Assembly: GCA_963769025.1 (NCBI GenBank)
Contig: CAVYKI010000003.1
Span: 736,001 to 800,000, forward strand
DNA length: 64,000 bases
Source: an uncultured Verrucomicrobiae bacterium
GTDB taxonomy: Bacteria > Verrucomicrobiota > Verrucomicrobiia > Chthoniobacterales > Chthoniobacteraceae
Reading direction: 5' to 3'
Position 1 is the stretch's first letter; each line of letters opens with the position of its first letter. Both the position numbers and the translations under genes were made by a program. Under the pieces are notes generated by a model. It worked only from the letters and a program-made list of their open reading frames with translations. It ran no database searches and was not told where the DNA came from. Shown here one piece after another: positions 2,373 to 24,459 of this stretch.

Positions 2373-2602
2373 GGAGCACCCATAGGTGCTCACACGAAAG
2401 ACAACAAGGACGGGCTGCCTCGATGGTGCGTCGGCTCGCGCAAGGACTGCATCCTGCCGGTGCACGGAAAGTTATCCCTAATCGCACGCCGCGCGGCGGC
2501 TACTCATTGGTGAACCGCCCCACACGACCCTCCCCCGTGACGATTCGCCTCCCTTTGAACAACCGATCAGCAGCATCCCGCGCGGGCGGGATTGTCATTT
2601 TC

Positions 2603-5452
2603 ATGGCGCGGACCGCCGCGTGGTGCGTGGCCGTCTCGATGCTGGCACTCGCGGTGAAAGTGCGCGCCGCGGAGCCGCTCCATGCGAAAATCGACGCGCT
2701 GATCGCCGCAGCGCATCCCGGCGGACAGGCGCCCATCGCGGATGATGCGGACTTTCTGCGCAGGACCTATCTCGCGCTGCACGGGGTCATCCCGACGGCG
2801 GCGCAGGCGCGCGCATTTTTCGCGGACACCGCGCCGGACAAGCGCGCGAAGCTCGCGGAGACGCTGCTCGCCGACCCGCAGTTTGCGCGATGGATGGCGG
2901 TGCGCTTCGACGTGATGCTCATGGAGCGCCGCGCCGAGGTGCAGACCAAGGAGGCGCCGTGGCGCGAATGGCTCGAGCAGTCGTTTGCGGCGAACAAACC
3001 GTGGGACGAGCTGGTGCGCGAGATGATCGCCGCGGACGGCTCGGACGAAAAAACGCGCCACGTCGCGCGATGGCTCCTCGAGCGCGAAGCGGACCCGAAC
3101 GCCCTCGCGAAGGATGCCGGGCGGCTGTTCCTCGGCCGCGACATCGCGTGCTCGCAATGCCACGATCACCCGCGCATCGACGACTATCTGCAGCGCGACT
3201 ACGCGGGCCTGCAGGCGTTCTTCAGCCGCACGTATCTCTTCCGGCCCGACACGAAAAAGCCGGGCCTCGTCGGCGAGCAGGCGGCGGGCGACACGACCTA
3301 TCTCTCGGTCTTCACGAAGGTCGGCGGCGGCACGAAGCCGCGTCTGCCCGGCGAGGCTGAACTCACGGAGCCCGCGGCGGGCGAATGGACGGTGGCGCCT
3401 GATGCCAAGAACAAGGCGTTGCGCCCGGTCCCGAAATTCAGCCGCCGCGCGCTGCTCGCGACGGCCCTTGGCGACGGGCATCACCCGGCGTTCCGGCGCA
3501 ACATCGCGAACCGGCTGTGGGCGGTCGTGTTTGGCCGCGGACTCGTGGAGCCGCTCGATCTGCATCACTCGGCGAATCCGCCCGCGATTCCGCCGCTGCT
3601 CGATCTGCTCGGCGACCAGATCGCAGCGATGAAATTCGACATGCGCGCCTTCATCCGCGAACTCGTGCTGACGCAGGCATTCCAGCGCGCGCTCGATCTG
3701 CCGGATCCGTCGGCGGAGGTCGCCGCCGCAGCGGCAAAGCTGGCGGAGTTGGAGAAGCAATCCGAGAAACTCGCGCTGGCCGCGCATTCCGCGGAGGAGC
3801 GGTTCATCGCGGAGCAAAAAGCGACCGCCGACGCCCAGCGTGCAGCGGCTCCTGCGCTGGCGGAACAATCGAAGCTCGATGCCGCGGCCGCAGCCGCGAA
3901 GAAGCCGCTGGACGACGCGCTCGCGGAACAGAAAAAATCCGAGGACGCGCTCGCAGCGCGGCGCGCGCAGGACAAGGCGCTCGCCGATGCGGCGGTGACG
4001 TCGGGCGAGTCGCCCGAGATCGTCGCGGCGGGAACGCCGGCTCCGGCAAAAGCCGTTCCCGTCGCCGCTGCCGAGAAGGACGCGGCCGCGAAAAAAGCCA
4101 CCGCGGACGCAAAGGCGAAAGTTTTTGAAACAGCCCGCCAGGCGGCTGTCGCAGCGAAGGCCAAAGCGGACGCAGCCATGGCGCAGCTCGCAGCCCGGCA
4201 GCCGGCACCGGACGAGGCGGCCGCGCGCAAGGAGTCCGAGCGAATCCAGGCCCCGCAGCTCGCGTCGGAGGCAAAGGCGGCAACCGCATGGCGCGAGGCC
4301 GTGACTGCCAGCCGCGCCGCGCTGACGGCTGCCGAGACGCTGGCGACCGCGAAGAAGGCGGACGCAGACGCAAAGGCGAAGAATTTCGAAACAGCCCGGC
4401 AGGCTGCCCTCGCGGCCAAAGGGAAGTCGGAGACGGCCACGGCGCAGATCGCAGTCCGTCAGGCAGCGCTCGACAAGGCGGGCGCGCAGAAGGAATCGGA
4501 TCGAATCCGCGCGAAGCACGCCGCGCAGCTCGTCACGGAAGCGAAGGCGGCGATCGCGTGGCACGAGGCCGCGGGCGCCGGGCGCGCGGCACGGCAGGCG
4601 GCGGCGAAAGCGGACGACGCTCTCCGCAAGGCGAAACGCAAGGCCGACCAGCTGGCAGCCGAAATCGCGAACGCACCCGCGAAGATCGCAGCGTTCGAGA
4701 GCACGTCCGCAGCGGATGCGCAGACCGCGTCAAAGGAGATCACCGACGCGAAGGCGGCGCTCGCCGCAGCGACGGCCGGGTTTCCCACGCTCAAGGCGCA
4801 GATTCCCGCGCTCGAAACGGCTGCGAATGCAGCGCGCGCAAAGGCGAACGAAACCGAACACGCCGAGGCCCAGGCCCGCGAGGCGGTCTCGGCCGCGTGG
4901 GGTCATGCATTCGCCTCGATGGAACTTCTCCCGCTCGCGCCGGAGCAGCTTTGCTGGTCGCTGATGCAGGCGACGGGGCAGCTCGATCCGCTCCGCACTT
5001 CCGCCGAGGCCGAGTGGGACAAGAAGAACAAGCTGAGCGACGCCGACAAGGCGAACCCGGCAAAACAGGCGGAGCGCACGGCGGGGATCAACAGGCTGTT
5101 CCGCGAAAAGCTGCGCGGTCAGGAAACTCAGTTCGTGAAATTTTTCGGCGGAGCCGCCGGGCAGCCGCAGTCGGACTTTTTCGCGACTCCCGAGCAGGCG
5201 CTCTATTTTGAAAATGGCGGCGTGATCCGCCAGTGGGCCGCCAGCCTCGCCACGCGCGCCGCCGCGCTGCCGGACGCGAAAGCGATGGCCGAGGAGATCT
5301 ATCTCGCGACGCTCACCCGCCTGCCCGACGCGACCGAGGTCGCCGAGCTCGGGGCCACGCTCGCCTCGCGCCCGCCGGAGCAGAAGGCCGCTGCGCTCGG
5401 CGATTTCGCATGGGCCCTCCTCGCCTCGCTTGAATTCCGCTTCATCCACTAA
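2603..5452 (+). CDS. DUF1549/DUF1553 (PSCyt2/PSD1) secreted protein with a long Ala/Lys-rich coiled-coil insert
   Basis: Signal peptide; DDADFLRRTYL.L.G..PT, NKPWDELVREMI, CSQCHDHP, NIANRLW..VFGRGLVEPLD, PEQAL, WALL.S.EF motifs. Confidence 0.9.
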   Translation: MARTAAWCVAVSMLALAVKVRAAEPLHAKIDALIAAAHPGGQAPIADDADFLRRTYLALHGVIPTAAQARAFFADTAPDKRAKLAETLLADPQFARWMAVRFDVMLMERRAEVQTKEAPWREWLEQSFAANKPWDELVREMIAADGSDEKTRHVARWLLEREADPNALAKDAGRLFLGRDIACSQCHDHPRIDDYLQRDYAGLQAFFSRTYLFRPDTKKPGLVGEQAAGDTTYLSVFTKVGGGTKPRLPGEAELTEPAAGEWTVAPDAKNKALRPVPKFSRRALLATALGDGHHPAFRRNIANRLWAVVFGRGLVEPLDLHHSANPPAIPPLLDLLGDQIAAMKFDMRAFIRELVLTQAFQRALDLPDPSAEVAAAAAKLAELEKQSEKLALAAHSAEERFIAEQKATADAQRAAAPALAEQSKLDAAAAAAKKPLDDALAEQKKSEDALAARRAQDKALADAAVTSGESPEIVAAGTPAPAKAVPVAAAEKDAAAKKATADAKAKVFETARQAAVAAKAKADAAMAQLAARQPAPDEAAARKESERIQAPQLASEAKAATAWREAVTASRAALTAAETLATAKKADADAKAKNFETARQAALAAKGKSETATAQIAVRQAALDKAGAQKESDRIRAKHAAQLVTEAKAAIAWHEAAGAGRAARQAAAKADDALRKAKRKADQLAAEIANAPAKIAAFESTSAADAQTASKEITDAKAALAAATAGFPTLKAQIPALETAANAARAKANETEHAEAQAREAVSAAWGHAFASMELLPLAPEQLCWSLMQATGQLDPLRTSAEAEWDKKNKLSDADKANPAKQAERTAGINRLFREKLRGQETQFVKFFGGAAGQPQSDFFATPEQALYFENGGVIRQWAASLATRAAALPDAKAMAEEIYLATLTRLPDATEVAELGATLASRPPEQKAAALGDFAWALLASLEFRFIH
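4110..4570 (+). repeat. Internal tandem duplication, period 261 nt (87 aa), in the coiled coil
   Basis: CAAAGGCGAA...TT.GAAACAGCCCG.CAGGC at 4110 and 4371; ADAKAKVFETARQAAVAAK vs ADAKAKNFETARQAALAAK; KESERI..EAKAATAW vs KESDRI..EAKAAIAW. Confidence 0.85.
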
Positions 5453-5465
5453 CCCACTCCACTCC

Positions 5466-6765
5466 ATGAAACCCTGCAACTACTCCTGCCAGACGCTCGA
5501 CCACGTCCTCAGCCGGCGGCGCTTTTTCCAGACCCTCGCGGCGGGCGGCGCGGCCGCTGTGCTGCCGAATTTCGGCCTCTTCACGTCGCCGACCGTCGTG
5601 GCCGAAATGGCGCGGAAACAAAAGCGGATGATCGTCATCAACATGGCCGGCGGCCTTTCGCAGCTCGAAAGCTGGGACCCGAAGCCGGGCACCGCGACCG
5701 GCGGGCCGTTCCGCGCGATCCCGACTTCCGTGCCGGGCATCCACATTTCCGAGCTGCTGCCGAAGACGGCGAAAGTGATGCATCACCTCGCCCTGGTGCG
5801 CAGCATCAACACGAAGGAGAACGACCACGGCAAGGGCGCCTACGTCATGTCCACCGGGCGGCACAAGACGCCGGCGCAGGATTATCCCGTGCTCGGTGCG
5901 GTGATGGCGCGGGCGCTCGACGCCGGCGGCGGCAGCGCGCTGCCCGGGCACATCGTCATCTCGCCAAATGGCAGCGGCGGACGCAGCGCCGACTCCGCCT
6001 ACCTCGGGCCGAAGTACGGAAGCGTGACACTCGGCGGCGCGAAGCCGCCGCAGTTTTCCGAGCGCCCGGCGAGCCTCGCCGCGGAGGCCTCCAACTGCGC
6101 GAACGATCTGCGCAGGAAAGTGAACGATCGCTTTGCGCTCCGCAGGCGCACGGCGGAGACGGACGCGTACACGCAGAGCTTCGAGCAGGGCCTGGAGCTG
6201 ATGAAGCAGCGCGACGTCTTCGACATCACGAAGGAATCGCAGAAGGATCAGGAACGCTACGGCTCGCACGATTTCGGCCGCCACTGCCTGCTCGCGCGAC
6301 GGCTCTGCGAGAGCGGCGTGACCTACGTGCGCGTGACGCACTCGAACTACGACACGCACTGCGAGAACTTCAATTTCCACTTCGAGCAGGTCGGCGAATT
6401 CGACGGGCCGTTCGCGACGCTCGTGGGCGATCTCGCCGATCGCGGGCTGCTCGAGCAGCACGCTCATCGTCGTGCTTTCCGAATTCGGACGGACGCCCCG
6501 CATCAACGCGAACTACGGCCGCGACCACTGGGGCACGGCGTGGAGCATCTGCCTCGGCGGCGCGGGCATTCATCGCGGCGCGGTCATCGGCGAAACCGCT
6601 GCCGATGGCACCTCGGTGAAGTCACGGCAGGTGGATGGCGGCCATCTTTTCCACACGTATCTCGCGGCGCTCGGCATCAAGAGCACGGGGCATTTCAATG
6701 TCGCCGGACAGAAGATGCCGATGGCGGATCCCGCGTTTGAGCCCATCGAAGAACTCCTCGCCTGA
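5466..6765 (+). CDS. DUF1501 family protein (Tat signal); one +1 frameshift near 6456
   Basis: SRRRFF twin-Arg; GGLSQLESWDPKP, FGRHCLLARRL.E.GV, YDTH; continues in the other frame as STLIVVLSEFGRTPRIN..GRDHW. Confidence 0.9.
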
Positions 6766-9401: not shown

Positions 9402-10754
9402 TCACCCGAGGATGCCGGGGACCACGTTGCCCTTGAGATTCGTGAGCCGGTAGTCGCGGCCTCCGTGGCGGTAGGTGAGCTTTTCGTGATCCAGGCCGAG
9501 CAGATGGAGGATCGTCGCGTGCCAGTCGTGGATGTCCATTTTCCCGTCGGTGACGTCGTAGCCGTGCTCGTCGGTGGTGCCGTAAATGTGGCCCGGCTTC
9601 ACTCCGCCGCCCGCCATCCACATGCTGAACGAACTGACGTGATGATCGCGCCCGTCGCTGCCTTCCGCGTGCGGCGTGCGGCCGAATTCGCCGGACCAGA
9701 TCACCAGCGTGTCCTTGAGCAGCCCGCGCGCGTCGAGGTCCGTGAGAAGGCCGGCGATGGGCTTGTCCACCGACTTGCAGAGCGCCGGCATCCGCTGCGT
9801 GTGATTGAAATGCGTGTCCCAGTCGCCATGCGTCACCTCGACGAAACGCACGCCCGCCTCCACCATGCGGCGCGCGAGCAGGCACTTCCGCCCGCAATCG
9901 TCGGTCTCCGTCTCGCCGATGCCGTAGAGCTTCAGCGTCTCGGCAGTGTCCTTGGTCAGGTCCATCACCGCGGGCATCTCGCTTTGCATTTTGTACGCGA
10001 GCTCGAAGGACTCGATCGCGCCCTGCACCTGCGGGTCCGCGCCTTCGCGCGCGAGACGTGCGCGGTTGAACGACTGCAGGAGGTCCAGCTCCGCGCGTTG
10101 CGCGGCGGGCGGCAGAACGGGAGTGAGGTTCGGAATCACCGTGCCCGCGATCGGCTGGCCGTCCGTGCCGATGGGCGAGCCCTGATGGATGGCGGGCAGA
10201 AATGCGTTGCCGTAATTCAGCGGTCCGCCAAAGCACGACGGCGGCGTGATGGTGATGAAGCCGGGCAGGTTTTCGTTGAGCGAGCCGAGCCCGTAGTGCG
10301 TCCACGAGCCGAGCGAAGGCCGCGCGCCCTGCGTCACCCCGGTGTGCATTTTCAAATACGCCGGCGCGTGCGCCTGCAGATCCGTGACCAGCGAATGGAT
10401 CACGCACAGCTTGTCCGCGTGCGACGCCATGCCGGGCACCAGCTCGGACATCCAGTGCCCGCTCTGCCCGTGCTGCGCGAATTTCCAATCCGTGCCGCGC
10501 AGCGTCGTGCCGGGGCGCCGCCCGGGCTTGCCGGCGTCGGCGTTGAGCCGCGGCTTGTAGGAGATGGTGTCGAGGTGCGACGGCGCGCCTTTCATGCAGA
10601 GGAAAATGACGCGCCGCGCGCGGGCCGCGATCCGCGCGAGATTCCTCACCTCCGCCCCGCCTGCCAGCGCGGAAAATGCCAGCCAGCCGAAGCCGAGCGC
10701 GCCGGTGCGCAGCGATGCGCGTCGTGTGAGTGGACGGTCGAAAATCGTGCTCAT
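9402..10754 (-). CDS. DUF1501 family protein (Tat signal)
   Basis: LTRRASL; RVIFLCMKGAPSHLDT, RPSLGSW..YGLG, CLLARRMVEAGVRFV, WDTH, GEFGRTP, GRDH. Confidence 0.92.
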   Translation of the reverse strand: MSTIFDRPLTRRASLRTGALGFGWLAFSALAGGAEVRNLARIAARARRVIFLCMKGAPSHLDTISYKPRLNADAGKPGRRPGTTLRGTDWKFAQHGQSGHWMSELVPGMASHADKLCVIHSLVTDLQAHAPAYLKMHTGVTQGARPSLGSWTHYGLGSLNENLPGFITITPPSCFGGPLNYGNAFLPAIHQGSPIGTDGQPIAGTVIPNLTPVLPPAAQRAELDLLQSFNRARLAREGADPQVQGAIESFELAYKMQSEMPAVMDLTKDTAETLKLYGIGETETDDCGRKCLLARRMVEAGVRFVEVTHGDWDTHFNHTQRMPALCKSVDKPIAGLLTDLDARGLLKDTLVIWSGEFGRTPHAEGSDGRDHHVSSFSMWMAGGGVKPGHIYGTTDEHGYDVTDGKMDIHDWHATILHLLGLDHEKLTYRHGGRDYRLTNLKGNVVPGILG

Positions 10755-10758
10755 GGGT

Positions 10759-13353
10759 TTACAGAAAGCGAAACTCCGCGCTGCCGAAGAGCGCGCGGCA
10801 AAGTCCCGTCCACGCCGCAGTTTCATCAGTGGATTCGCGCGACTGGATGAACTGGCGTGCGGCCTCGGCCTCCTCCGCACGCGGCGGCCTGCCGAGGACG
10901 AGCATGCACGCGAGGCGGAAGCGCGCATCGAAGCCGGTGCCCGCCGCGCACACGCGCCGTGCGAGCAGCGACGACTGGCGCGCGACGAACCCGCTGTTCA
11001 TGAGGAAGAGCGCCTGCGCCGGGACGATCGTCGTTTCGCGCGCGCCGACCACCGCGCTGGCGTCCGCGCTGTTGAAAATCGCGAGGGTGGAATGCGGAAG
11101 GTCGCGCGCGACCGGCAGGTAAATGGAACGGAAGTCGCCCTCCGCCGTCGTCACCGCCTCCGCTTTCAAGACGGGGAAGCGCAGCCCGTCGATGGGGCCC
11201 TGGCCCGTCATCGCCAGCAGCGATCCGCGCCGCGGCGTGAGATCCAGCGTGCCGCTCGCGGCCAGCATCGCGTCGCGCAGGGACTCGGCGTCGAGGCTGC
11301 GGACGTTGGCGCGACGCAGCATCACGTTGTCGGGATCGATCAGCGAAGCCGCCGCTTCGGCGGGCGCGCCGCCGGGACCGTCCGCGCGCGCGAGCTGCCA
11401 GGCGCGGCTCAGCACGATTTCGCGCACGAGCTTTTTCACCGACCAGCCCTCCGCCACGAACCGCGTCGCGAGATGATCGAGCAACGCCGCGTGACTGGGA
11501 GCCGATCCCGTCCTTCCAAAATCATCCACGCTCGCGACCAGACCGCGGCCGAAGAGCCAGTGCCACGCGCGGTTCACAAAAACGCGCGCCGTGAGCGGGT
11601 TCGCCGGGGAGGCGATCCAGCGCGCCAGTTCCAGACGGCCGCTGCTGTTTGCCGGAATGGCGATATTCCTGCCGCCATTGAGAAACAGCGGCACGCCGCG
11701 CGCGACCGGATCCTGCTCCCGCGCGATCTGGCCGCGCGCGAAAAGCGGACTGTCGCCGACGGTGCGGAACGCCAGTTGCGGCGCGAAGGCGAACGAATGC
11801 GGCGGTGCCGGCGGCGCACCGGCCGGCGGCTTCTCGATCACGCCCATGAGGCGCGGCTTCAAGGCGCCGTTCGGGCGGAAGGCGCGGATATCCACCTCGA
11901 TCGCGCGGGCGCGGAAAAGCAGTTCCTCGAGCACGGTCCCGTCCTTCGTCATCATGCCCTGGCGCGGCGCACCGTCGCCGCTCGTGGCCATCGTCTCGAA
12001 AAAGGTCTTCATGATCGCCGTGTGCTCCGCGGTGAGCTGCGCGAGCTTTTCCGGCTCGATGCGGCGTTCGATCATCGGCAGGCCCAGCGAATCCGGCGCC
12101 TCGATGAACGCGGTGCCCATGCGCCCCTGCGCGCCGCCGGGCGTGCCAAAGCGCGTCTCGCTCGACAGGAAAATCCCCGCGAGGGCCGTGTAATCCTCCT
12201 GCGTCACGGGATCGGCGCGATGCTCGTGGCAGCGCGCGCACGCGATGGTGAGCCCGAGGAAGCCGCGCGACACCGCGTCGATCTGCTCGTCGGCCAGATC
12301 GACGGCAAACTGGGTGCTGTTCGTTTCGAGGAGTGATTTCGGGCCGATTGCCAGGAAGCCCGTGGCGACGAGATTCCGCGCTCGCTCGGCGACGCCGGTG
12401 TCCGGCAGCAGGTTGCCCGCGATCTGCTCGAGGATGAAGCGGTCAAACGGCTTGTCCTCCTGGAATGACTCGATCACGTAGTCGCGATACCGCCACGCCT
12501 CGGACTGGATGCCGTTCACATCGCGGCCGTTCGTCTCCGCGTAGCGCGCCACGTCCAGCCAATGCCGGCCCCACCGCTCGCCGTATTGGCGCGTGGCGAG
12601 CAATTCGTCCACCACCCGTTCCAGCGCGCGGGGATCGTCGGTCGTGGCAAAGGCGTCGATCTGCGCCGGGGTCGGCGGGAGCCCCGTGAGCGCGAAATGC
12701 ACACGCCGCAGCAAAAGATACCTGTCCGCATCGGCGGCGGGCTTGAGCTGCTTTTCCTCCAGCGACGCGAGGATGAAGCGGTCGATGTCCGTGCGCGGCC
12801 ACGCTGAGTCCTTCACCTGCGGCACCGGCGGCGCCTGCACGGGCTGAAAGGACCACCATGTGCGCGCCTCCTGCGACAGTTCCCTGGCGACGCGTTGCGA
12901 CGGACCGCCCGTGCGCGGATCGGGCGCACCCATCCGCACCCAGCGCTCGAAATCCGCGATCACCGCATCCGGCAGTTTCCCGCCCTTGTCCTTGGGCGGC
13001 ATCGACAGGTCGGGGTCTTCGTAACGGATGGCCTTGATCAGCGGGCTTTTCTCCGGATCGCCCGGAATGACCGCAGGCCCGTGCTCGCCGCCCCTGAGAA
13101 TTCCGTCCTTCGTGTCCAGCCGGAGGTCGCCCTTGATCTTGTTGCTCGGCGAATGGCAGCCGTAACATTTCTCGGCCAGCACGGGACGGATCTTTGCTTC
13201 AAAGAAGCGCACCTTTTCCGCCGCCGTCTCCTCGGCCCCTGCCGGGACGGCCGCAAGCACTCCCGCCAATGCGACCACGCAACAAATCCCTCGGCCCGAG
13301 CAGGGCTCAAATGGCCGGATCAATTTCCGCGAAAGCCAGCGGATCACGTTCAT
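10759..13353 (-). CDS. Planctomycete cytochrome c (PSCyt1) + DUF1549 + DUF1553 protein
   Basis: FFEAKIRPVLAEKCYGCH heme motif, WVRMGAPDP, WSFQP, YGERWGRHWLDVARYAE, CARCH, NPLTARVFVNRAW..LFGRGLV. Start uncertain (13353-13371). Confidence 0.9.
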   Translation of the reverse strand: MNVIRWLSRKLIRPFEPCSGRGICCVVALAGVLAAVPAGAEETAAEKVRFFEAKIRPVLAEKCYGCHSPSNKIKGDLRLDTKDGILRGGEHGPAVIPGDPEKSPLIKAIRYEDPDLSMPPKDKGGKLPDAVIADFERWVRMGAPDPRTGGPSQRVARELSQEARTWWSFQPVQAPPVPQVKDSAWPRTDIDRFILASLEEKQLKPAADADRYLLLRRVHFALTGLPPTPAQIDAFATTDDPRALERVVDELLATRQYGERWGRHWLDVARYAETNGRDVNGIQSEAWRYRDYVIESFQEDKPFDRFILEQIAGNLLPDTGVAERARNLVATGFLAIGPKSLLETNSTQFAVDLADEQIDAVSRGFLGLTIACARCHEHRADPVTQEDYTALAGIFLSSETRFGTPGGAQGRMGTAFIEAPDSLGLPMIERRIEPEKLAQLTAEHTAIMKTFFETMATSGDGAPRQGMMTKDGTVLEELLFRARAIEVDIRAFRPNGALKPRLMGVIEKPPAGAPPAPPHSFAFAPQLAFRTVGDSPLFARGQIAREQDPVARGVPLFLNGGRNIAIPANSSGRLELARWIASPANPLTARVFVNRAWHWLFGRGLVASVDDFGRTGSAPSHAALLDHLATRFVAEGWSVKKLVREIVLSRAWQLARADGPGGAPAEAAASLIDPDNVMLRRANVRSLDAESLRDAMLAASGTLDLTPRRGSLLAMTGQGPIDGLRFPVLKAEAVTTAEGDFRSIYLPVARDLPHSTLAIFNSADASAVVGARETTIVPAQALFLMNSGFVARQSSLLARRVCAAGTGFDARFRLACMLVLGRPPRAEEAEAARQFIQSRESTDETAAWTGLCRALFGSAEFRFL

Positions 13354-13386
13354 GAATGCCATCCAACGCATGTGCGCATGAAGTAT

Positions 13387-13419
13387 CTGCAACGAACTTG
13401 CTGCTGCAAGGAGTTTGCT
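13387..13419. promoter_or_regulatory. Tandem pair of GCAA-N5-TTGC palindromes in a divergent promoter region
   Basis: CTGCAACGAACTTGCT (13387-13402) and CTGCAAGGAGTTTGCT (13404-13419), 13/16 identical, period 17. Confidence 0.4.
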
Positions 13420-13484
13420 TTTTCCAATCGAACCAATCTCCCACTTGTCAGTGGGGGCAGGAAGCGCCAGCGTGGCGGAACACC

Positions 13485-16265
13485 ATGATGCCCGCGACCC
13501 GGTTCCGACCCATCCGTCATTCCCTGTGGATTCTTGCTGCCGTGGCCTTCGCCATCGTGCCCTCCGGCTGCGACAGGGCACCTGCCCCCGGCGGCGCGAG
13601 CCAGTCATCGGCCGGCTACACGCTGGTCCACCAGTTGATGGCGCGAAATACCGACTTGGTCGACATGCAGGGCAGGGTCGTCCATCGCTGGAAAAGCGAG
13701 AATGGGCTGGCGGGTGGCGCCCGGATGCTGCCGAACGGCGACCTCATCCGTTCCGTGCGGTTGGACAACAACCCCTTCACCATGTCCGCGCCCGGGATCA
13801 CCGGGATGGTCGAGCGGATCGACTGGAATGGGAAACGGGTGTGGGCGTTCGTCCATGCCGAAAAAAGGAAGATCATCCATCACGACGTGGAAGTCCTCCC
13901 GAACGGGAACTTCCTGCTGATCGGTGCGGAGCTGAAAACGGAGGAGGAACTTCTCGCCGCCGGCCGGGACCCAGCCCGGATGCGCGGCGACATCTTGGCG
14001 ATCGACTATCTCATCGAGGTCGCCCCCACGGGAGGCTACGGGGGCAAGATCGTGTGGCAATGGAACGCATGGGATCACCTCGTCCAGGATCACGATCCCG
14101 CGAAGAAGAATCACGGCGTGGTTGCCGACCATCCGGAACGGATCGACCTGAACTACATCGAAACCCCGACGCCCCTGACCGGCTCGCGCCTGCAGGCCCT
14201 CCAGTCGGTCGGCTATGTCGCCGGCGGAAAGAAGAACGCGGCGGAAGAGCCGCAGTCACCCGATTGGACGCACGCGAACTCGGTCTCCTATAACGCCGAG
14301 CGTGATCAGATCATGCTCACCATGCGGAATCTCGGCGAGATCTGGGTCATCGATCACAGCACGTCTACCGCGGAAGCGGCGGGGAAATCCGGGGGTCGCT
14401 ACGGCCGCGGAGGAGACCTGCTTTACCGCTGGGGGAACCCGCAGGCCTACCAGCGCGGAAAACCCGCCGACCAGAAGCTCTTCGGGCCGCACGATGCGCA
14501 TTGGATTCCCGCCGGCCTTCCCGGGGCGGGCAATGTGCTCATTTTCAACAACGGCGAAGGCCGCAGGGATGGCGAACATTCGGCCATCGAGGAAATCCAG
14601 ATTCCGGCCGCAGGCGACGGGAAGTTCAAGATCGATGCCGGCAAGCCCTACGGTCCGGATGCACCCGTGTGGCGCTACGTTTCCAAACCGAAGACCGCGT
14701 TCTATTCCTCGTTCCTTTCAGGGGCGCACCGGCTTCCCAATGGCAACACGCTCATCTGCTCCGGCATGCAGCGCAATGTCTTCGAAGTGGATCCGGCGGG
14801 CAATACCGTCTGGAGCTACCGCGTCGAAACGGATGGAGACCCCGCGGCTCAAGATCCGTCCCACATGCCTCCACCGCCGGCAGGACCCGGGATGCCTGGA
14901 GCGCCGGGTGGGGGTGGAGGCCCGCCGCCACCGCCGCTCATCACGATACTGGACATCAATGGCGATCGCTCCATTGACGCCGCCGAGACTGCGCAGGCTT
15001 CCACGCGCTTGAAGATGCTCGATCGAAATGGCGACGGTGTCCTGTCGCTTGAGGAATGTCTTCCGGCACCGGGCGGGCCGGGAGGACTGCTGGGCGGTCT
15101 CTTCGGAGGGCCACCGGGAGGACCGGAAGGCCCGTCAGGAGGCGATTCCGGACGGCCTCCGTTGCCGCCGATTTTTACGGCGTTCGACAAAAATGGCGAC
15201 GGCAAGATCGACGCTGCCGAGATCACCCAGGCACCGGCGAGTATGGCGAAACTCGACCGCAACGCGGACGCGAAAATCAGTTTCGAGGAATGTCTGCCCA
15301 TGGGAGGCCCCGGCGGCCCGGGAGGGCCGGGAGGGCCGATGGCAGCGCCCGGCGGTCTGGCCGATCCGCTGGGAGCCGGCGCCCTTGGCGATCCTCTTGG
15401 AGCCGGTGGTCCGGCAGGGCCCGACAGCGGGCCACCGCCGCCGCCGCTCATCACGATTTTGGATATCAACCGCGACGGGTTCATCGACGCCGCCGAAATC
15501 ACCCAGGCCGCCACGCGCGTGAAGATGCTCGATCGGAATGGCGACGGAGTGCTGGAAATCGGGGAATGCCTCCCGGCACCGGGTGGGCCGGGTGGGCCCG
15601 GAGGACTTGGAGGTCCGCAAGGGGATGATTCCGGACGCCCGCCGTTGCCGCCGATTTTTACCACGCTGGACAAAAATGGCGACGGTAAGATCGACGCGAC
15701 GGAAATGCCCCAGTCACCTGCGGGCTTGGCGAAGCTCGACCGCAACGGTGACGGAAAGATCAGTCTCGATGAGTGCCTGCCCATGGGAGGTCCGGGTGGC
15801 CCGGGCAGTCCCGGCGGTCCGTCCGGGCCAGGCAGTTCGCCACCGCTTCCTCCGATCATCACCATTTTCGACCCGGATCGGGCTGGCACGATACCCACGA
15901 CATCCATCGCGCGCGCCGCGGAGCTCTTGCCGAAACTCGACCGCAATGGCGACGGCAAGCTCACCACGGACGAATACCTGCCCGGCACCGGAAACCGTGA
16001 CAACGGCTCCCGACCCATGCCTCCAATTGTCACCGCACTGGACGCGGATGGCGACGGCTCCATCGATGCGAAAGAGGTGGCCGGCGCTCCGGCTGCGCTG
16101 GCAAAGCTCGATGCGAATGCCGACGGAAAGCTCAGTCGCGACGAATACCTGCCGGGTGCCCCGGACGGCGCGGTAGGCGCGCTTCATGGCGGCCTGTTCC
16201 GTGCCCAGCGTTTTCCGACGGACCACCCCGCCTTCAAAGGACGCACCCTCACCCCGCTTCCCTAG
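13485..16265 (+). CDS. Arylsulfotransferase (ASST)-family lipoprotein carrying six EF-hand pairs and Gly/Pro linkers
   Basis: Lipobox VPSGC; HHDVEVLPNGN, DWTHANSV, LTMRN, GDLLYRWGNP, PHDAHW, RLPNGNTLI; twelve DxNxDG-type loop positions (one degenerate). Confidence 0.88.
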   Translation: MMPATRFRPIRHSLWILAAVAFAIVPSGCDRAPAPGGASQSSAGYTLVHQLMARNTDLVDMQGRVVHRWKSENGLAGGARMLPNGDLIRSVRLDNNPFTMSAPGITGMVERIDWNGKRVWAFVHAEKRKIIHHDVEVLPNGNFLLIGAELKTEEELLAAGRDPARMRGDILAIDYLIEVAPTGGYGGKIVWQWNAWDHLVQDHDPAKKNHGVVADHPERIDLNYIETPTPLTGSRLQALQSVGYVAGGKKNAAEEPQSPDWTHANSVSYNAERDQIMLTMRNLGEIWVIDHSTSTAEAAGKSGGRYGRGGDLLYRWGNPQAYQRGKPADQKLFGPHDAHWIPAGLPGAGNVLIFNNGEGRRDGEHSAIEEIQIPAAGDGKFKIDAGKPYGPDAPVWRYVSKPKTAFYSSFLSGAHRLPNGNTLICSGMQRNVFEVDPAGNTVWSYRVETDGDPAAQDPSHMPPPPAGPGMPGAPGGGGGPPPPPLITILDINGDRSIDAAETAQASTRLKMLDRNGDGVLSLEECLPAPGGPGGLLGGLFGGPPGGPEGPSGGDSGRPPLPPIFTAFDKNGDGKIDAAEITQAPASMAKLDRNADAKISFEECLPMGGPGGPGGPGGPMAAPGGLADPLGAGALGDPLGAGGPAGPDSGPPPPPLITILDINRDGFIDAAEITQAATRVKMLDRNGDGVLEIGECLPAPGGPGGPGGLGGPQGDDSGRPPLPPIFTTLDKNGDGKIDATEMPQSPAGLAKLDRNGDGKISLDECLPMGGPGGPGSPGGPSGPGSSPPLPPIITIFDPDRAGTIPTTSIARAAELLPKLDRNGDGKLTTDEYLPGTGNRDNGSRPMPPIVTALDADGDGSIDAKEVAGAPAALAKLDANADGKLSRDEYLPGAPDGAVGALHGGLFRAQRFPTDHPAFKGRTLTPLP
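14922..16155 (+). repeat. Array of six EF-hand-pair units; units 1-2 duplicated as 3-4 (offset 510 nt at the start of the unit)
   Basis: CCGCCGCTCATCACGAT at 14931 and 15441; repeated PP.i...D.NGDG.ID..E......KLDRNGDG.....E.LP. Confidence 0.9.
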
Positions 16266-16390: not shown

Positions 16391-16466
16391 TGGTGGATCG
16401 TGTCGGACTCGAACCGACAACCTAGTGATTAAGAGTCACTTGCTCTACCGATTGAGCTAACGATCC
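16391..16466 (-). tRNA. tRNA-Lys (anticodon CTT)
   Basis: GGATCGTTAGCTCAATCGGTAGAGCA-AGTGA-CTCTTAA-TCACT-AGGTTGTCGGTTCGAGTCCGACACGATCCACCA; 76 nt cloverleaf, TTCGA T-loop, encoded CCA. Confidence 0.97.
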
Positions 16467-16485
16467 TTGGTGAACGAGGGCCGGG

Positions 16486-16513
16486 AAGTTATGCGTCCAC
16501 GGCGGCGGCTCAA
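16486..16513 (-). promoter_or_regulatory. Candidate housekeeping-sigma promoter of tRNA-Lys
   Basis: TTGAGC-N16-TAACTT followed by a GC-rich discriminator CCCGGCCC. Confidence 0.45.
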
Positions 16514-16554
16514 GTTCTTTTTTCCGCGGATGAAAATGAGGAGCGATTTTTTCC

Positions 16555-18792
16555 TCAGAGCAGATGCTGCGCGTCCACGTCCACGGTGACGAAGACGTCC
16601 TCGGGGAACGTGAGCTTGTCGAGGACGTCGCGGAGGGCGCGGCTGAGTTTCAGGATGGCGCGCGTGCGCAGCATGAGGTGGAAGCGGTAGTTGCCGTGCG
16701 ATTTTTCCAGCGGCGCCGGCGCGGGCTCGCCGAGCGTCGTGCCGGGCGGGAGCGTCGTCCTTGAGCCGGCGGTGCAGCGTCTCGGTGGAAAATCGCGCGC
16801 GCTCCTGATGCGGCGAGCGCACGGTGATGAGGACGAAATGCGTGAACGGCGGGTAGTTCCACTGTCGCCGGAACTCGATCTCCTGCTCCCAGAAGCCCTC
16901 GAAGTCGTGATGCCGCGCGAACTGGATCGCGGGGTGAAACGGCGTGAAGCTCTGCACGAAGACCTCGCCCTCGACATCGCCGCGGCCCGCGCGCCCGGCG
17001 ACCTGCGTGAGGAGCTGGAAGGTGCGCTCGCCCGCGCGGAAATCCGGCAGGTGCAGCCCGAGGTCGGCGTTGACGATGCCGACGAGCGTGACGTTGGGAA
17101 AGTGCAGCCCTTTCGCGATCATCTGCGTGCCGACGAGGATGTCGATCTTGCCGGTGCGAAAGGCGCCGAGCGTGTCGCGGTAGGCGTTCGCGCCGCTGCA
17201 TCACGTCGGCGTCCATGCGCTTCACGACGGCCTTCGGGAAAAATTTCGCCACGGCGTCCTCGACCTTCTCGTGCCGGTGCCGGTGTATTTGATGCCGGGA
17301 TCCTTGCACTCGGGGCACTTCGTCGGCGCGACGGCGTGGTGGCCGCAGATGTGGCAGACGACGCGGCTCGCCGCGCGGTGAAAGGTGAGCGCGACGGAGC
17401 AGTTCGGGCATTCGCAGACGTAGCCGCACTTTCGCGCAGATGCAGCGAGGTGCGAGAAGCCGCGGCGGTTGAGGAAAAGGATCGTCTGCTCCTTTTTCTC
17501 GAGCCGCGTCGTTGATCGCGGTGATGAGCCGCTCGCTGAGGATCGGCGCCGATTTTTTTGCGACTCCATCCGCATGTCCACGATGCGGATGAACGGCATC
17601 TTCTTGTCGTCCACGCGCAGCGTCAGGCGGAGCAGTTCGTACTTGCCGGCTGACGGCGTTGTGGTAGCTCTCCAGCGAAGGCGTGGCGCTGCCGAGCAGC
17701 ACCGCGCATTTCTCCATGTGGCCGCGGAGCACGGCGAGGTCGCGCCCGTGGTAGCGCGGCGTCTCCTCCTGCTTGTAGGTGTTCTCGTGCTCCTCATCGA
17801 CGACGATGAGGCCGAGCTTTGCGCACGGCGCAAAGATCGCCGAGCGCGCACCGATGACGATGCGCGCGCGGCCGCTGCGGATCTTGTGCCATTCGTCGTG
17901 GCGCTCGCCTTCGCTGAGGTGCAGTGCAGCACGGCGACCTCGTGCTGCGTCGCGGCGAAGCGCGACTTGAAACGCTCGACGGTCTGCGGCGTGAGCGAGA
18001 TTTCCGGCACGAGCATGATCGCGCGTCTGCGCCGCGCTCGAGCACGAGCTGGATCGCCTGGAGATAAATCTCCGTCTTGCCGCTGCCGGTCACGCCGTGG
18101 AGCAGCAGCGGCTTCGGCGCGGGGTCGGAGCCGTTCGCCGCGATTGCGGATTGCACACGCGCGAAGACGACGGCCTGCTCCGCGTTCAGTTCGAGCTTCG
18201 CGTTCGGGACGAAGGTTTCCGTGCCATGCGGATCGCGCTCCACCGTCTCCGGTTCGACGGTGAGGATGCCCTTTTTTGCGAGCGCCTTGATCGTCTGCGG
18301 CGCGACGGAACACTGCTCCGACAGAGCGGCGACGGCGATCGGACCTTGCGCCGCGCGCAGCGCGGCGACGACCTCCGCCTGATTCGGCGCGCGTTTGCGG
18401 ATCGTTTCGATTTCCTCATCGGAAACCTCGCGAGCGAGCCGAGCGACGAGCCGCTTCTTGTGCTGGATTTCCGCCTTGCGAATCACGCTGGGGAGCACGG
18501 TTCTCAGCGCGGCCTCCAGCGGGCAGCAGTAGTAGTTTGCCACCCATTCAGCGAGGCGGATGAGCTGCGGACTGAGCGCAGGCTCGTCGCTCACGAGCTC
18601 GGAAATCAGCCGCACTCCATCGGCCCCGGTCGTGTCCGAAATCCCGACGATCGTGCCGAGCATCACCCGCGTGCGCACCGGGACGCGCACGCGGCAGCCG
18701 ACGCCGGCCGTGTCCGCCATCGCCGCCGGGATTTCGTAGTCGAACGCACGCCCGCCGGAGTCATCGACGAGGACGAGGGCGTATTTGGGCAT
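16555..18792 (-). CDS. priA: Primosomal protein N' (PriA); at least eight frameshifts in the 3' two-thirds, probably consensus errors
   Basis: [52 protein letters not shown] Zn motifs, [22 protein letters not shown] spread across alternating frames. Confidence 0.93.
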
Positions 18793-18927
18793 GACGTGAG
18801 AATGCAGACCGAGGCGGCTTTGTCCAAGGCGGAGCAAGCAACGCTTGCGCGCAGTGCCCACTGCCCGGCTGCAAAACCCGGCGCATAATTCTGGCATTCC
18901 GCGCCGACGCGCCTCTAATCGCCGACC

Positions 18928-19515
18928 GTGAAACGAAACATCCGGCGCATCCTCGTCGCGGTCGTGTGCGCCGTGAACATCGCGCTCGCCGTGGTGCTCT
19001 GGCGTTCCGGCGATCCGGCGTACCGGCTGCAGGAGCTTCTGGCGCTCGGGCGATTTTCCGAGCACGACGACCTCATCGCCCGCGCAGCGAAAAGGCACGG
19101 CGTGGACCCTCTGCTCGTGAAGGCCGTCGTCTGGCGGGAGAGCCGGTTTCACCCTTCGCAAGTCGGTGGTGCCGGCGAGCGCGGGCTCATGCAGGTCGGC
19201 GAGGCTGCGGCGCGCGACTGGGCCGCGGCACGCAAGATCGAGGTCTTTGTCTATGCGGATCTTTTTGACGCCAAGACGAACCTCGAAGCCGGCACGTGGT
19301 ATCTCGGCCGCGCGCTGGAGCGGTGGAAGGATCGCGACGACCCGGTTCCGTATGCGCTCGCGGAATACAATGCCGGACGTTCCCGCGTGGAGAAATGGGC
19401 GGCGAATGCGGACTCCGCGGGCGAGATGTTGCGCGAGGCGTCGGGGACCACCACACGCCAGTACGTGGACGATGTGATCCGCCGCTATCAGCGCTATCTC
19501 GCGCAGGCCCGGTGA
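18928..19515 (+). CDS. Soluble lytic transglycosylase (SLT domain) with N-terminal anchor
   Basis: VDPLLVKAVVWRESRF, GLMQV, NLEAGTWYL, ALAEYNAG, TRQYV; GTG start. Confidence 0.92.
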   Translation: MKRNIRRILVAVVCAVNIALAVVLWRSGDPAYRLQELLALGRFSEHDDLIARAAKRHGVDPLLVKAVVWRESRFHPSQVGGAGERGLMQVGEAAARDWAAARKIEVFVYADLFDAKTNLEAGTWYLGRALERWKDRDDPVPYALAEYNAGRSRVEKWAANADSAGEMLREASGTTTRQYVDDVIRRYQRYLAQAR

Positions 19516-22526: not shown

Positions 22527-24021
22527 TTAGAGGACGTAGCCCTCTTCCCGTGGTCGGTGAGGTCGAGGCCGGCGGTCTCTTCCTCCGGCGTCGGACGCAG
22601 GCCGATGACCGCTTTCACGATGAAGGCGATGACCGCGGTGGCCACGACGCTGAGCACGATGGTGACGGCGATGGCCTTGAACTGCTCCATCATCAGGCCT
22701 GCCTTGAGGCCGCCGACCACGCTGTTCGCCTTTTCGTCGGCGAGGACGCCGGTGAGGATGGCACCGAGGGTGCCGCCGACGCCGTGGACGCCGAAGGTGT
22801 CGAGCGCGTCGTCGTAGCCGAGCATGTTCTTCAGGAAGACCACGGCGAAGTACGGGATGATGCCGGCGAGCGACGCCGATGATCATCGCGCCGTTGGCGT
22901 TGACGAAACCGCACGCCGGCGTGATCACGACGAGACCGGCGACGATGCCCGAGCAGAAGCCGAGGACGCTAGGGTGGCCGCGGTGCATCCATTCCAGCGA
23001 CGCGCCCAGACGAAGCCGGCGGTGCGCCGCGGCGAGCGTGGTGGTGGTGAAGGCGTTCGAGGCGATGGCGTCGGCGCCGAGCGCGGAGCCGGCATTGAAG
23101 CCGTACCAGCCGACCCAGAGCATGCCGGTGCCGACCATACAAAGCACCATGCTGTGCGGGGCCATCTTCTCTTTGCCGAAGCCGAGGCGCTTGCCGAGGA
23201 TGATGCAGAGCACCAGCGCGCTCCAGCCGGAGGTCATGTGCACGACGGTGCCGCCGGCGAAGTCGATCGCCTTGATGCGCGGCGTCCGGATTCAGCGGGC
23301 CGCACATGAAGCCGGTGGTGCCCCACACCATGTGGGCGAGCGGGAAGTAAACGACGAACATCCAGAGGGCGACGAAGAGCAGGACGGCGGAGAATTTCAT
23401 GCGCTCGGCGATGGCACCGACGATGAGCGCCGGGGTGATGATCGCGAAGGTGAGCTGGAACATGGCCCAGATGGAATCGCTGATCCAGTGGTAGCCCGCG
23501 CCGACATTGCCGGGCTCGACGCCCTTGAAGAATGCGTAGGCTGAAGTCACCGATGAAGGCGTTGCCCGCGCCGAAAGCTCAGGCTGTAGCCGCACGACCC
23601 ACCAGAGGATGGTGACCAGGCCGGCGATGCCCAGGCACTGCGCGAGCACGGAGAGGACGTTCTTCCTCCGCACCAGGCCGCCGTAGAACAGCGCGAGGCC
23701 GGGCAGCGTCATGAAGAGCACCAGCGCGGTGCTGGTCATCTGCCAGGCATTGTGACCGGGGCCGGGGCCGGCGACCTTGGAAGCCACGCCTTCCTCCTTC
23801 TTGGACCGCTCGCCATTGTTCATGTAGGCCTCGATGTCCGCCAGGCGCTGCTCGATGGTCGGGTCCTTTTTGGGTTCCTCGGGCTTCGCAGCCTCCTCCT
23901 TCTTTTCAACGACGGGTGCTGCAGGTGCAGGGTCCTGCGCTCGCAGGTTCGGTGCTCCGAGCGTCCCGAGCGCGACGGCGGCCGCGATGGCGAGACTGGA
24001 GATGATTTTGGTCAATTTCAT
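22527..24021 (-). CDS. amtB: Ammonium transporter with signal peptide and N-terminal extension; several frameshifts
   Basis: AWQMTSTALVLFMT.PGLALFYGG, FQLTFAIIT, DFAGGTVVH, LWVGWYGFNAGS, DDALDTFGVHGVGG, GLDLTDH. Confidence 0.93.
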
Positions 24022-24141
24022 TCGAGTGTTTGGGATGTTGTTGGTTTGTTGATGCCTCACTCCCCTCCCCCGCTGTCGAAAAGCGCCCATGGGGCTGGCG
24101 CTCGCGCGATTTCCGGGTAAGTCAGTTGGCAGCGCCCCGTT

Positions 24142-24158
24142 AGCAACGCCTGTGCCAA
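24142..24158 (-). promoter_or_regulatory. Sigma-54 (-24/-12) promoter of amtB-glnK
   Basis: Minus strand TTGGCAC-AGGCG-TTGCT matches the TGGCAC-N5-TTGCW consensus, 120 nt upstream of amtB. Confidence 0.85.
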
Positions 24159-24459
24159 CGCCTGCCACGGCCCCGCTCCATCAGAGGAAAAAAGTTCCAG
24201 AGCCCCACATTTCGCGCATTTTCTGCGTGGCTAGAAACGTCCATCCCTGTCCCGTTTGTGCAAAAAACGACAGGGGCGCCCAATCAGCTCAAGCCGGAGT
24301 CTCCGCCTTCACGCACCGCCTTTTAGAAGCCCTCACCTTCCACCGCAGTGGTCGCACTGCCGACCACGCGTGGACGCGCCTCCCCACAAACGGCACCGTG
24401 ATATTCACGAAACGTTCGCGCCCCCCCGGGCGCTTCGCTCCGCACGCCGCAATTCCCGC

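Follow-up and report, generated by a model that had tools for sequence, protein, structure and literature searches.

A probably exported ASST-type propeller protein of a soil verrucomicrobium with a predicted EF-hand array ahead of its closing strand

What does a long array of putative calcium-binding modules do inside an enzyme? The question is raised by a gene at positions 13485–16265 (+ strand) of a 64,000-nucleotide stretch of contig CAVYKI010000003.1, from an uncultured Verrucomicrobiae bacterium that lives in soil and whose genome is 83% complete; this whole stretch is referred to below as the window. The gene encodes a β-propeller of the aryl-sulfate sulfotransferase (ASST) type together with an EF-hand array, which an earlier note made from the sequence alone had described as an insertion in the last propeller blade that could gate closure and activity or act as a metal sponge. 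The explanation that we hold as a whole to be somewhat better than an even bet is that of an exported ASST-type enzyme whose propeller is closed by its own C-terminal strand in 'velcro' fashion, with the EF-hand array as a non-gating accessory. The coordinates and reading frame in the earlier note were correct, as the 926-aa frame translates without internal stops. An alternative, longer open reading frame (ORF) begins at 13356, though the start at 13485 is preferred because it gives a hydrophobic N-terminus followed by Cys29.

Membership in the ASST family was assessed by family hidden Markov model (HMM), predicted fold, and catalytic histidines and sulfuryl-binding residues, all of which agree. 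The Pfam profile Arylsulfotrans (PF05935) matches residues 92–431 with an E-value of 9.9e-20 and 71.3 bits against a cut-off of 24.2, the match spanning profile positions 68–336 of 374. The main part of the six-bladed propeller, placed from Pfam, the model and conservation, occupies 13596..14819 (+; residues 38–445), ends with a VWSY strand, and bears His132/His133/Asp134, His263/Asn265, Arg281, His336, Arg360 and Arg416. The four motifs quoted earlier were each found again (HHD at 132–134, HANS at 263–266, MRN at 280–282 and PHDA at 335–338). A sequence search of the PDB with the whole protein returned calmodulin-type EF-hand matches only; with the propeller alone it found Escherichia coli AssT (E 5e-4), which a profile built from 85 homologues matched at E 2.8e-9. 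The AlphaFold model has a mean predicted local distance difference test score (pLDDT) of 78.6, with most of the propeller above 90. In structural alignments (VIA) its best match was Cpz4 (Z 31.6, root-mean-square deviation (rmsd) 3.0, 327 residues aligned), followed by E. coli AssT (Z 25.5, rmsd 3.6, 333 aligned), while unrelated six-bladed propellers reached Z scores of about 18–22. Foldseek ranked the structural matches in the same order.

The active site of AssT comprises His252, His356, Asn358, Arg374, Thr501 and the sulfo-histidine His436, according to a 2026 review (PMC13426309). All but Thr501 align to identical residues in the window protein, with His252, His356, Asn358, Arg374 and His436 opposite His133, His263, Asn265, Arg281 and His336. 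The residue corresponding to the sulfo-histidine, His336, is kept in 85 of 85 aligned homologues, and His133, His263 and Asn265 are each kept in 84 of 85.

Comparison with the two structurally characterized relatives sets the limits of this likeness. E. coli AssT (EcAST; PDB 3ELQ, 3ETS, 3ETT) has the same propeller, with model residues 38–918 superposed on chain residues 125–571 at about 21% identity over aligned residues, and is exported, as the window protein appears to be. The window protein differs in its probable lipid anchor, in the 458-aa EF-hand array that precedes its closing strand, where the Pfam model has only 38 positions left beyond the match that ends at residue 431, and in the absence of the N-terminal β-sandwich of AssT, such that the alignment begins at AssT residue 125 and the propeller at about residue 38. 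The same review (PMC13426309) treats this sandwich as a feature of the E. coli subtype and not of the ASST family. Since it is missing here, the protein is a member of the ASST family that lies outside the EcAST subtype. Cpz4 from Streptomyces (PDB 9KF4, 9KF6) is, like the window protein, a single propeller without the AssT N-domain, and model residues 38–926 lie on its residues 73–480 at 18–19% identity. It has no insert, and according to the PDB titles it serves secondary metabolism, in caprazamycin biosynthesis.

Between NTVWSY, which ends at residue 445, and LFRAQRF, which starts at 904, lie 458 aa (14820..16193, +; residues 446–903), in good agreement with the earlier figure of about 455. 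As the earlier note had described, this insert holds six EF-hand pairs on Gly/Pro-rich linkers; we find 12 loops, of which 11 are canonical, arranged in six 47-aa units. The EF-hand Pfam profiles PF00036, PF13202 and PF13499 all matched above their cut-offs (EF-hand_1, E 1.5e-33 and 112.3 bits against 25.4; EF-hand_7, E 7.1e-25 and 87.6 bits against 30), and in all six pairs the two loops are separated by exactly 11 residues. On the + strand the pairs run as follows: pair 1 (unit A) at 14925..15065, with loops 490–501 and 513–524, Cys525 and pLDDT of about 89–96; pair 2 (unit B) at 15159..15299, with loops 568–579 and 591–602, Cys603 and pLDDT of about 95–97; pair 3 (unit A′) at 15435..15575, with loops 660–671 and 683–694, Cys695 and pLDDT of 65–71; pair 4 (unit B′) at 15642..15782, with loops 729–740 and 752–763, Cys764 and pLDDT of 63–76; pair 5 (unit C) at 15843..15983, with loops 796–807 and 819–830 and pLDDT of about 90–97; and pair 6 (unit D) at 16014..16154, with loops 853–864 and 876–887 and pLDDT of 93–98. 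Asp at position 1, Asp or Asn at 3, Asp at 5 and Glu at 12 are present in 11 of the 12 loops, and Gly at 6 in nine. The remaining loop, 796–807 (DPDRAGTIPTTS), is degenerate, without the ligands at positions 5 and 12, and is paired with a canonical partner; in two orthologues (G003 and G005) the first loop of the unit equivalent to C is likewise degenerate. The linkers total 176 aa, are 30–75% Gly plus Pro and have pLDDT values below 50. The insert as a whole carries a net charge of −29 (pI 4.3), while the propeller is neutral.

To describe the unit across proteins we collected 62 copies from 16 protein rows, some rows being the same protein from two sources. The 47-aa unit consists of a lead segment P-x-P-P-[IL]-x-T-x-[LF], loop 1, an 11-residue helix, loop 2 and a [C/Y]-L-P tail. 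Loop 2 is nearly invariant at its ligand positions (Asp1 in 62/62, Asp or Asn3 in 60/62, Gly6 in 59/62, Glu12 in 61/62), with loop 1 somewhat less so (Asp1 and Glu12 in 51/62 each); the departures in loop 1 seem to fall mostly in unit C. The residue directly after the second loop is Cys in pairs 1–4 (E-C-L-P; 15057–15776) and Tyr in pairs 5–6, and across the 62 units it is Cys in 34 and Tyr in 15; in an exported protein, inter-unit disulfides are possible. Dockerin type I (PF00404), which we considered as another identity for the repeats, was set aside at 22.6 bits against a cut-off of 22.9, no single stretch passing. Among NCBIfam models, XopAW, LanM, an EF-hand-bearing transaldolase and a deiodinase-related family all matched below cut-off.

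Several lines of evidence bear on whether the array is an insertion or a tail. The piece that follows it (16194..16262, +; residues 904–926, LFRAQRFPTDHPAFKGRTLTPLP) contains a strand at 904–910, and residues 901–926 are modelled by AlphaFold at pLDDT 90–98 despite the preceding linker lying below 50. Structural alignments reach model residues 918–926, which correspond to the last residues of AssT (571) and Cpz4 (480). Phe905 is conserved in 79, Arg906 in 84 and Arg909 in 82 of the 85 homologues, independent of the type of insert. When residues 38–452 and 893–926 were given to the predictor as two chains, they docked with a score of 0.93, three controls giving 0.02 at best. This mark is reached by 116 of the 157 solved complexes and by 2 of the 215 mismatched pairs; the runs had at least 83% of contacts in common and a partner pLDDT of at least 77. 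Since the two chains are parts of one protein in a family with solved structures, this pass may partly be recall of those structures. Taken with the conserved C-terminus and its high pLDDT, the predicted docking supports a loop insertion over a tail, as the earlier note had argued, and the C-terminal peptide, whose failure to pack it had named among the outcomes that would count against its reading, is packed into the propeller in the predicted models.

The predicted contacts also suggest where the strand sits. Residues 45–47 contact 907–910 and residues 49–51 contact 904–905, an antiparallel pairing with the first N-terminal strand. Further predicted contacts of the closing piece fall on 75–85 and 411–418, the innermost strands of the two neighbouring blades, as well as on 423–434, His133, His336/Asp337 and Leu411–Gly413 (including Ser412). 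The outer strands, 'G..VW.[YW]' in sequence, recur with six-fold periodicity (65–70, 118–123, 187–194, 312–316, 396–398 and 441–446). From this periodicity and the contacts, the C-terminal strand would be the innermost of the closing blade, the N-terminus (45–70) supplying the remaining three. The insert would then lie between the outer strand of blade 6 and the inner strand of the closing blade, an assignment made from DSSP strings, sequence periodicity and the predicted contact list.

If the closing strand is so conserved, how is an insert of this size tolerated directly before it? The earlier note took as its premise that in this family the VW.Y strand is followed within a short loop by FRA.R. 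This is true of members below 509 aa, in which the loop has a median of 18 aa and a range of 6–60 aa (89/120 resolved). For the family as a whole it holds only in part, since long inserts are common: in members of 509–1621 aa the loop runs from about 20 to more than 300 aa (105/120 resolved), and among representatives of 50%-identity clusters the median is 28 aa, with 36 of 105 loops above 40 aa and 23 of 105 above 100 aa (105/150 resolved). These figures describe the best 120 or 150 of 8000 scored candidates, with loop lengths taken from motif or regular-expression matches and BLAST anchoring, and a few values for multi-domain proteins, such as P0007, P0009, P0011 and P0337, are probably not single loops. 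Three fillers recur, namely Gly/Pro-rich low complexity (mostly verrucomicrobial), helical hairpin repeats (planctomycete) and EF-hand pairs. The family as a whole has an insertion hotspot in the connection that leads to the closing strand. The hotspot is also apparent in individual homologues from the Planctomycetes–Verrucomicrobia–Chlamydiae (PVC) bacteria, where P0102 and P0116 (LTXXQ-like) and P0022 and P0032 (Gly/Pro) share 40–57% identity, the insertion point and the FRAxR strand with the window protein and, unlike it, carry a filler that is not EF-hand.

The hairpins form an observation of their own. Planctomycete homologues (P0048, P0054, P0060, P0065, P0089, P0102, P0116 and others) carry LTXXQ/CpxP-Spy-like hairpins in the same loop, built from two to four tandem copies of a '...LKLTAEQKKQL...LLTxEQKKQLKE' unit. 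Pfam LTXXQ scores 24.3 bits in P0102, exactly at its cut-off, and 21.0 in P0116. These hairpin arrays are a second, undescribed array type in the loop before the closing strand.

A FastTree tree of the propeller part only (92 rows, P0055 having been dropped because the motif was not found in it; LTXXQ-type proteins make up 31 rows) places 12 EF-array proteins in one group with a support of 85, nested in the clade with Gly/Pro inserts and with P0020 and P0030 as sisters. A separate EF group, P0246 and P0248 with one pair each, lies among LTXXQ and short-loop proteins, and the tree requires at least two changes for the EF label. Judged from these sequences, the likely order of events is a Gly/Pro expansion, then the capture of an EF pair, then tandem duplication. 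The unit HMM counts four pairs in most relatives, two in P0008 and P0013, and six in the window protein alone. The AB-AB duplication reported in the earlier note can be seen at the DNA level, where 14919–15085 matches 15429–15595 at 80% and a second repeat, 15114–15338 against 15597–15821, has 79% identity; at the amino acid level unit A′ is 79% identical to A (pairs 3 and 1) and B′ 74% to B (pairs 4 and 2). With copies only 79–80% identical, this is not an assembly duplicate. An ancestral array of four pairs, A-B-C-D, would thus have become A-B-A′-B′-C-D by one tandem duplication.

The EF-pair module is portable. In the host genome itself, short-spaced EF pairs with Gly/Pro linkers also make up a small secreted protein (L012, G000:C9:515717-515965) and form the C-terminal tail of a further exported protein (L013, G000:C9:429919-430230), and two related genomes (G004 and G014) encode stand-alone secreted two-pair proteins (L009, L010). 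Within the ASST family, EF pairs are found N-terminal to the propeller in P0076, P0256, P0262 and P0356, and after the closing strand in P0285, P0313 and P0379.

The gene is present in 4 of 24 other genomes of the genus (G003, G004, G005 and G014) and in none of the 16 genomes searched from other families of the order, and the architecture occurs in 11 of the 120 best database matches, all of them metagenomic proteins. Database entries bear automatic names such as 'aryl-sulfate sulfotransferase [Chthoniobacteraceae bacterium]' and 'Ca2+-binding EF-hand superfamily protein'. The G014 orthologue (L005/L006, G014:C4:205843-208117) has a frameshift at the start of the insert, which leaves ORFs of 544 and 362 aa, and the public protein P0122 (463 aa) is its N-terminal fragment without the closing strand. 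The earlier note had known of no description of this architecture. That much stands, as none was found in the full-text literature, subscription journals not covered, though the 11 database matches and four congeneric genomes mean that the architecture is not unique. The closest known systems also include verrucomicrobial fusions of calmodulin-like EF-hands with sulfatase, thioredoxin, cytochrome and cyclic-nucleotide (cNMP)-binding domains (Schaeffer et al. 2020, PMC7016017). As far as the passages considered here go, they resemble the window protein in placing EF-hand dyads on extracytoplasmic or redox/sulfur-ester enzymes in the same phylum, and differ in being described as fusions, with no ASST and no within-fold insertion among them.

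At the N-terminus, the earlier note had called the protein a lipoprotein. A signal peptide with a candidate lipobox (13485..13571, +; residues 1–29, ...AIVPSGC) can be read from the translation, with a basic and hydrophobic start and a helix at 10–27 in the AlphaFold model. The lipobox-like sequence V-P-S-G-C ends in Cys29, and four orthologues have Cys at the equivalent position (IPSGC, LPSGC, LSAGC and LPCGC), of which LSAGC, in G005, is canonical; over the wider alignment the position is Cys in 32 of 85 homologues. A Pro at −3 is atypical under the lipobox rule. The hydrophobic helix, Cys29 and the orthologues speak for the claim and the Pro against it, so that the lipoprotein assignment is plausible from sequence, and the product is probably exported with a lipid anchor.

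Together these data can be accommodated in the following model. The protein would be an exported, probably lipid-anchored enzyme of the aryl-sulfotransferase type, independent of 3′-phosphoadenosine-5′-phosphosulfate (PAPS). Its six-bladed propeller would be closed velcro-style by the last 23 residues, which would provide the innermost strand beside the catalytic histidines and complete the central funnel, and catalysis would follow the AssT scheme of ping-pong transfer, here through sulfo-His336. In this lineage a Gly/Pro-rich filler would have gained a secreted-type EF pair led by the PxPP-I-x-T-x-L segment. The array, as we infer, would be acidic and loaded with Ca2+ at up to 11 sites strung along disordered linkers; it would emerge beside the active-site funnel, and it might serve in substrate or matrix capture, in anchoring or as a spacer from the membrane, without acting as an on/off switch of closure. 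What points to a portable accessory is that fillers are freely exchanged, that copy number varies, that the linkers are long and disordered, and that the module is also present at termini and in other proteins.

The most consequential alternative is metal-gated closure, in which Ca2+ compacts the EF pairs, thereby sets the tether length for the closing strand and switches the enzyme. The insert does enter the propeller directly before an innermost strand that is predicted to touch His133, His336 and Ser412 and carries the near-invariant Arg906 and Arg909, the EF ligand positions are strongly conserved, and short-spaced bacterial EF pairs such as those of lanmodulin are disordered without metal. 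We nevertheless consider gating unlikely. Across the family this loop is occupied by unrelated fillers that range from 6 to more than 300 aa, and the strand is conserved throughout; even close relatives differ in their number of pairs (two, four or six). Within the array, Gly/Pro linkers that total 176 aa and have pLDDT below 50 uncouple the units from the propeller. EF pairs are also found before or after the propeller in other members of the family, and on exported proteins that are unrelated. Moreover, Ca2+ outside the cytoplasm is usually no signalling variable. A broader form of the same idea, in which the loop is a regulatory port where ligand-dependent folding of whichever module occupies it (EF pairs, or the planctomycete LTXXQ hairpins) controls strand docking, so that the window protein would be a Ca2+-tuned 'velcro switch', strikes us as rather improbable. 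Less probable still is that the array is a sponge that stores or scavenges Ca2+ or lanthanides, with the propeller a mere carrier. In its favour are up to 11 canonical sites, the net charge of −29 and pI of 4.3, and a likeness to lanmodulin (NCBIfam NF053806), which likewise has paired 12-residue loops about 11–13 residues apart, with Asp at position 9, as in the odd loops here. Lanmodulin loops also have Pro at position 2, which is found in none of the 11 canonical loops of the array and only in the degenerate loop (DPDRAG...), and position 3 here is mostly Asn. The LanM model matches in part, over residues 850–889, with 72 bits where its cut-off is 135; when the genome was scanned it gave 23.5 bits. 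No pyrroloquinoline quinone (PQQ) methanol/ethanol dehydrogenase (TIGR03075, XoxF-type) scored over cut-off in the 83%-complete genome. Nothing here speaks for lanthanides in particular, and the lanthanide reading was set aside as the leading one. Unlike lanmodulin, the module here is embedded in an enzyme loop; one lipoprotein per locus would also make a poor store of any metal, and the propeller retains its full set of catalytic residues.

The array could instead be a neutral passenger, with modules expanding and contracting in a permissive loop by slippage and recombination and contributing nothing to the function of the enzyme. The site is hypervariable in length and content, copy number varies and has recently risen by tandem duplication, the distribution is patchy with one orthologue frameshifted, and sister proteins manage with low-complexity filler only. 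The ligand positions have, however, been retained in almost every one of the 62 units, the two diverged duplicates among them, which contradicts a purely neutral passenger; EF pairs were gained in the loop before the closing strand at least twice, and conservation extends to the unit's lead segment and its Cys/Tyr-Leu-Pro tail. We regard neutrality as unlikely. A still simpler explanation, that the array and C-terminal piece are chimeric or mis-joined, or that the C-terminal match is due to chance, takes some force from genes that are split in this assembly (priA over several frames, a Phosphodiest gene in three). It is nonetheless very improbable: the order of propeller, EF array and FRAxR recurs in G003, G004, G005, G014 (frameshifted) and the 11 metagenomic proteins, and the duplicate copies are 20% diverged. 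Short soil-metagenome contigs count against it too: five match exactly, three of them within the gene and one of these three inside the array (15560–15710), though none spans the array. Among matching sequencing runs no RNA run is listed, and one soil-metagenome DNA run contains 0.14 of the sampled words.

A number of points weigh against the accessory reading or limit it, beginning with the chemistry. At the position of Arg281, the counterpart of AssT Arg374, just 37 of the 85 homologues have Arg and 27 have His, and in the phmmer alignment AssT Thr501 falls opposite Leu411, with the adjoining Ser412 conserved in 84 of 85. For these reasons the substrate chemistry of the PVC clade may differ from that of AssT. 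The patchy presence of the gene and the frameshift in G014 fit a dispensable function. In G003, G004 and G014 the ASST gene is followed by two codirectional Phosphodiest (PF01663) genes; those of the host are found elsewhere on the contig, at a distance of about 670 kb (G000:C3:75609-79667, −), the first split over three frames, a displacement that we attribute to rearrangement with frame breaks. Single-base errors inside the gene are possible, though its frame is open and matches the orthologues end to end. With regard to structure, propellers follow a usual convention as to the face on which connections of this kind emerge, and the catalytic residues lie at the starts of inner strands, so that the insert should, by topology, emerge on the active-site face. 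Since the closing strand touches catalytic residues in the predicted models, an effect of the array on activity stays conceivable, for instance through tether length or folding.

The neighbourhood of the gene is partly shared between genomes. A divergent PSCyt1/PSCyt2/PSD1 gene (DUF1549/DUF1553 by Pfam; 10759..13608, −), whose true start is probably well inside the ORF, precedes the ASST gene here and in G004 and G014, and is followed by a DUF1501 gene (9402–10928, −). The window in fact holds two separate PSCyt2/PSD1 (DUF1549/DUF1553) and DUF1501 gene pairs, at 2423–6740 (+) and 9402–13608 (−). On the other side the ASST gene is followed by priA, not by Phosphodiest. This priA (16457–19161, −) extends over at least three frames, with ORFs at 17794–19161 (PriA_3primeBD), 17222–18313 (Zn_ribbon_PriA), 16650–17732 and 16457–17122, which points either to an assembly prone to indels or to an essential gene that is broken. 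Contigs from related organisms differ from the window by 1-nt indels at 17650 and 17922 inside priA, and these neither prove nor disprove assembly errors. Further along, an ORF at 22969–24168 (−) matches only positions 1–141 of 399 of an ammonium transporter profile and may be a split gene.

ASST propellers with 37–44% identity to residues of about 40–445 were also found on metagenome-assembled genome (MAG) contigs assigned to archaea (L018, L019 and L024; Euryarchaeota/Thermoplasmatota) and to Bacteroidota (L020–L023), by which the ASST clade is not confined to PVC bacteria. At an E-value of 1e-30 or better the protein as a whole has 1,723 clusters of homologues at 50% identity, and propellers of the ASST type are abundant in Planctomycetota and Verrucomicrobiota. 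To our knowledge no member of the clade to which the window protein belongs has been studied so far. The EF-hand array is an unusual variant of a loop that is often filled with extra modules in this family, and the family points to a structural rule: the loop before the innermost closing strand can take up small modules by the array, and the strand itself does not change. The protein would offer a natural system in which to study how a propeller closes when the tether is very long. It also suggests where insertions might be made in the engineering of ASST biocatalysts, and it holds a compact predicted Ca2+-binding array of 11 sites. If the array did control closure, this would be a new kind of metal-regulated enzyme and an undescribed mode of propeller regulation.

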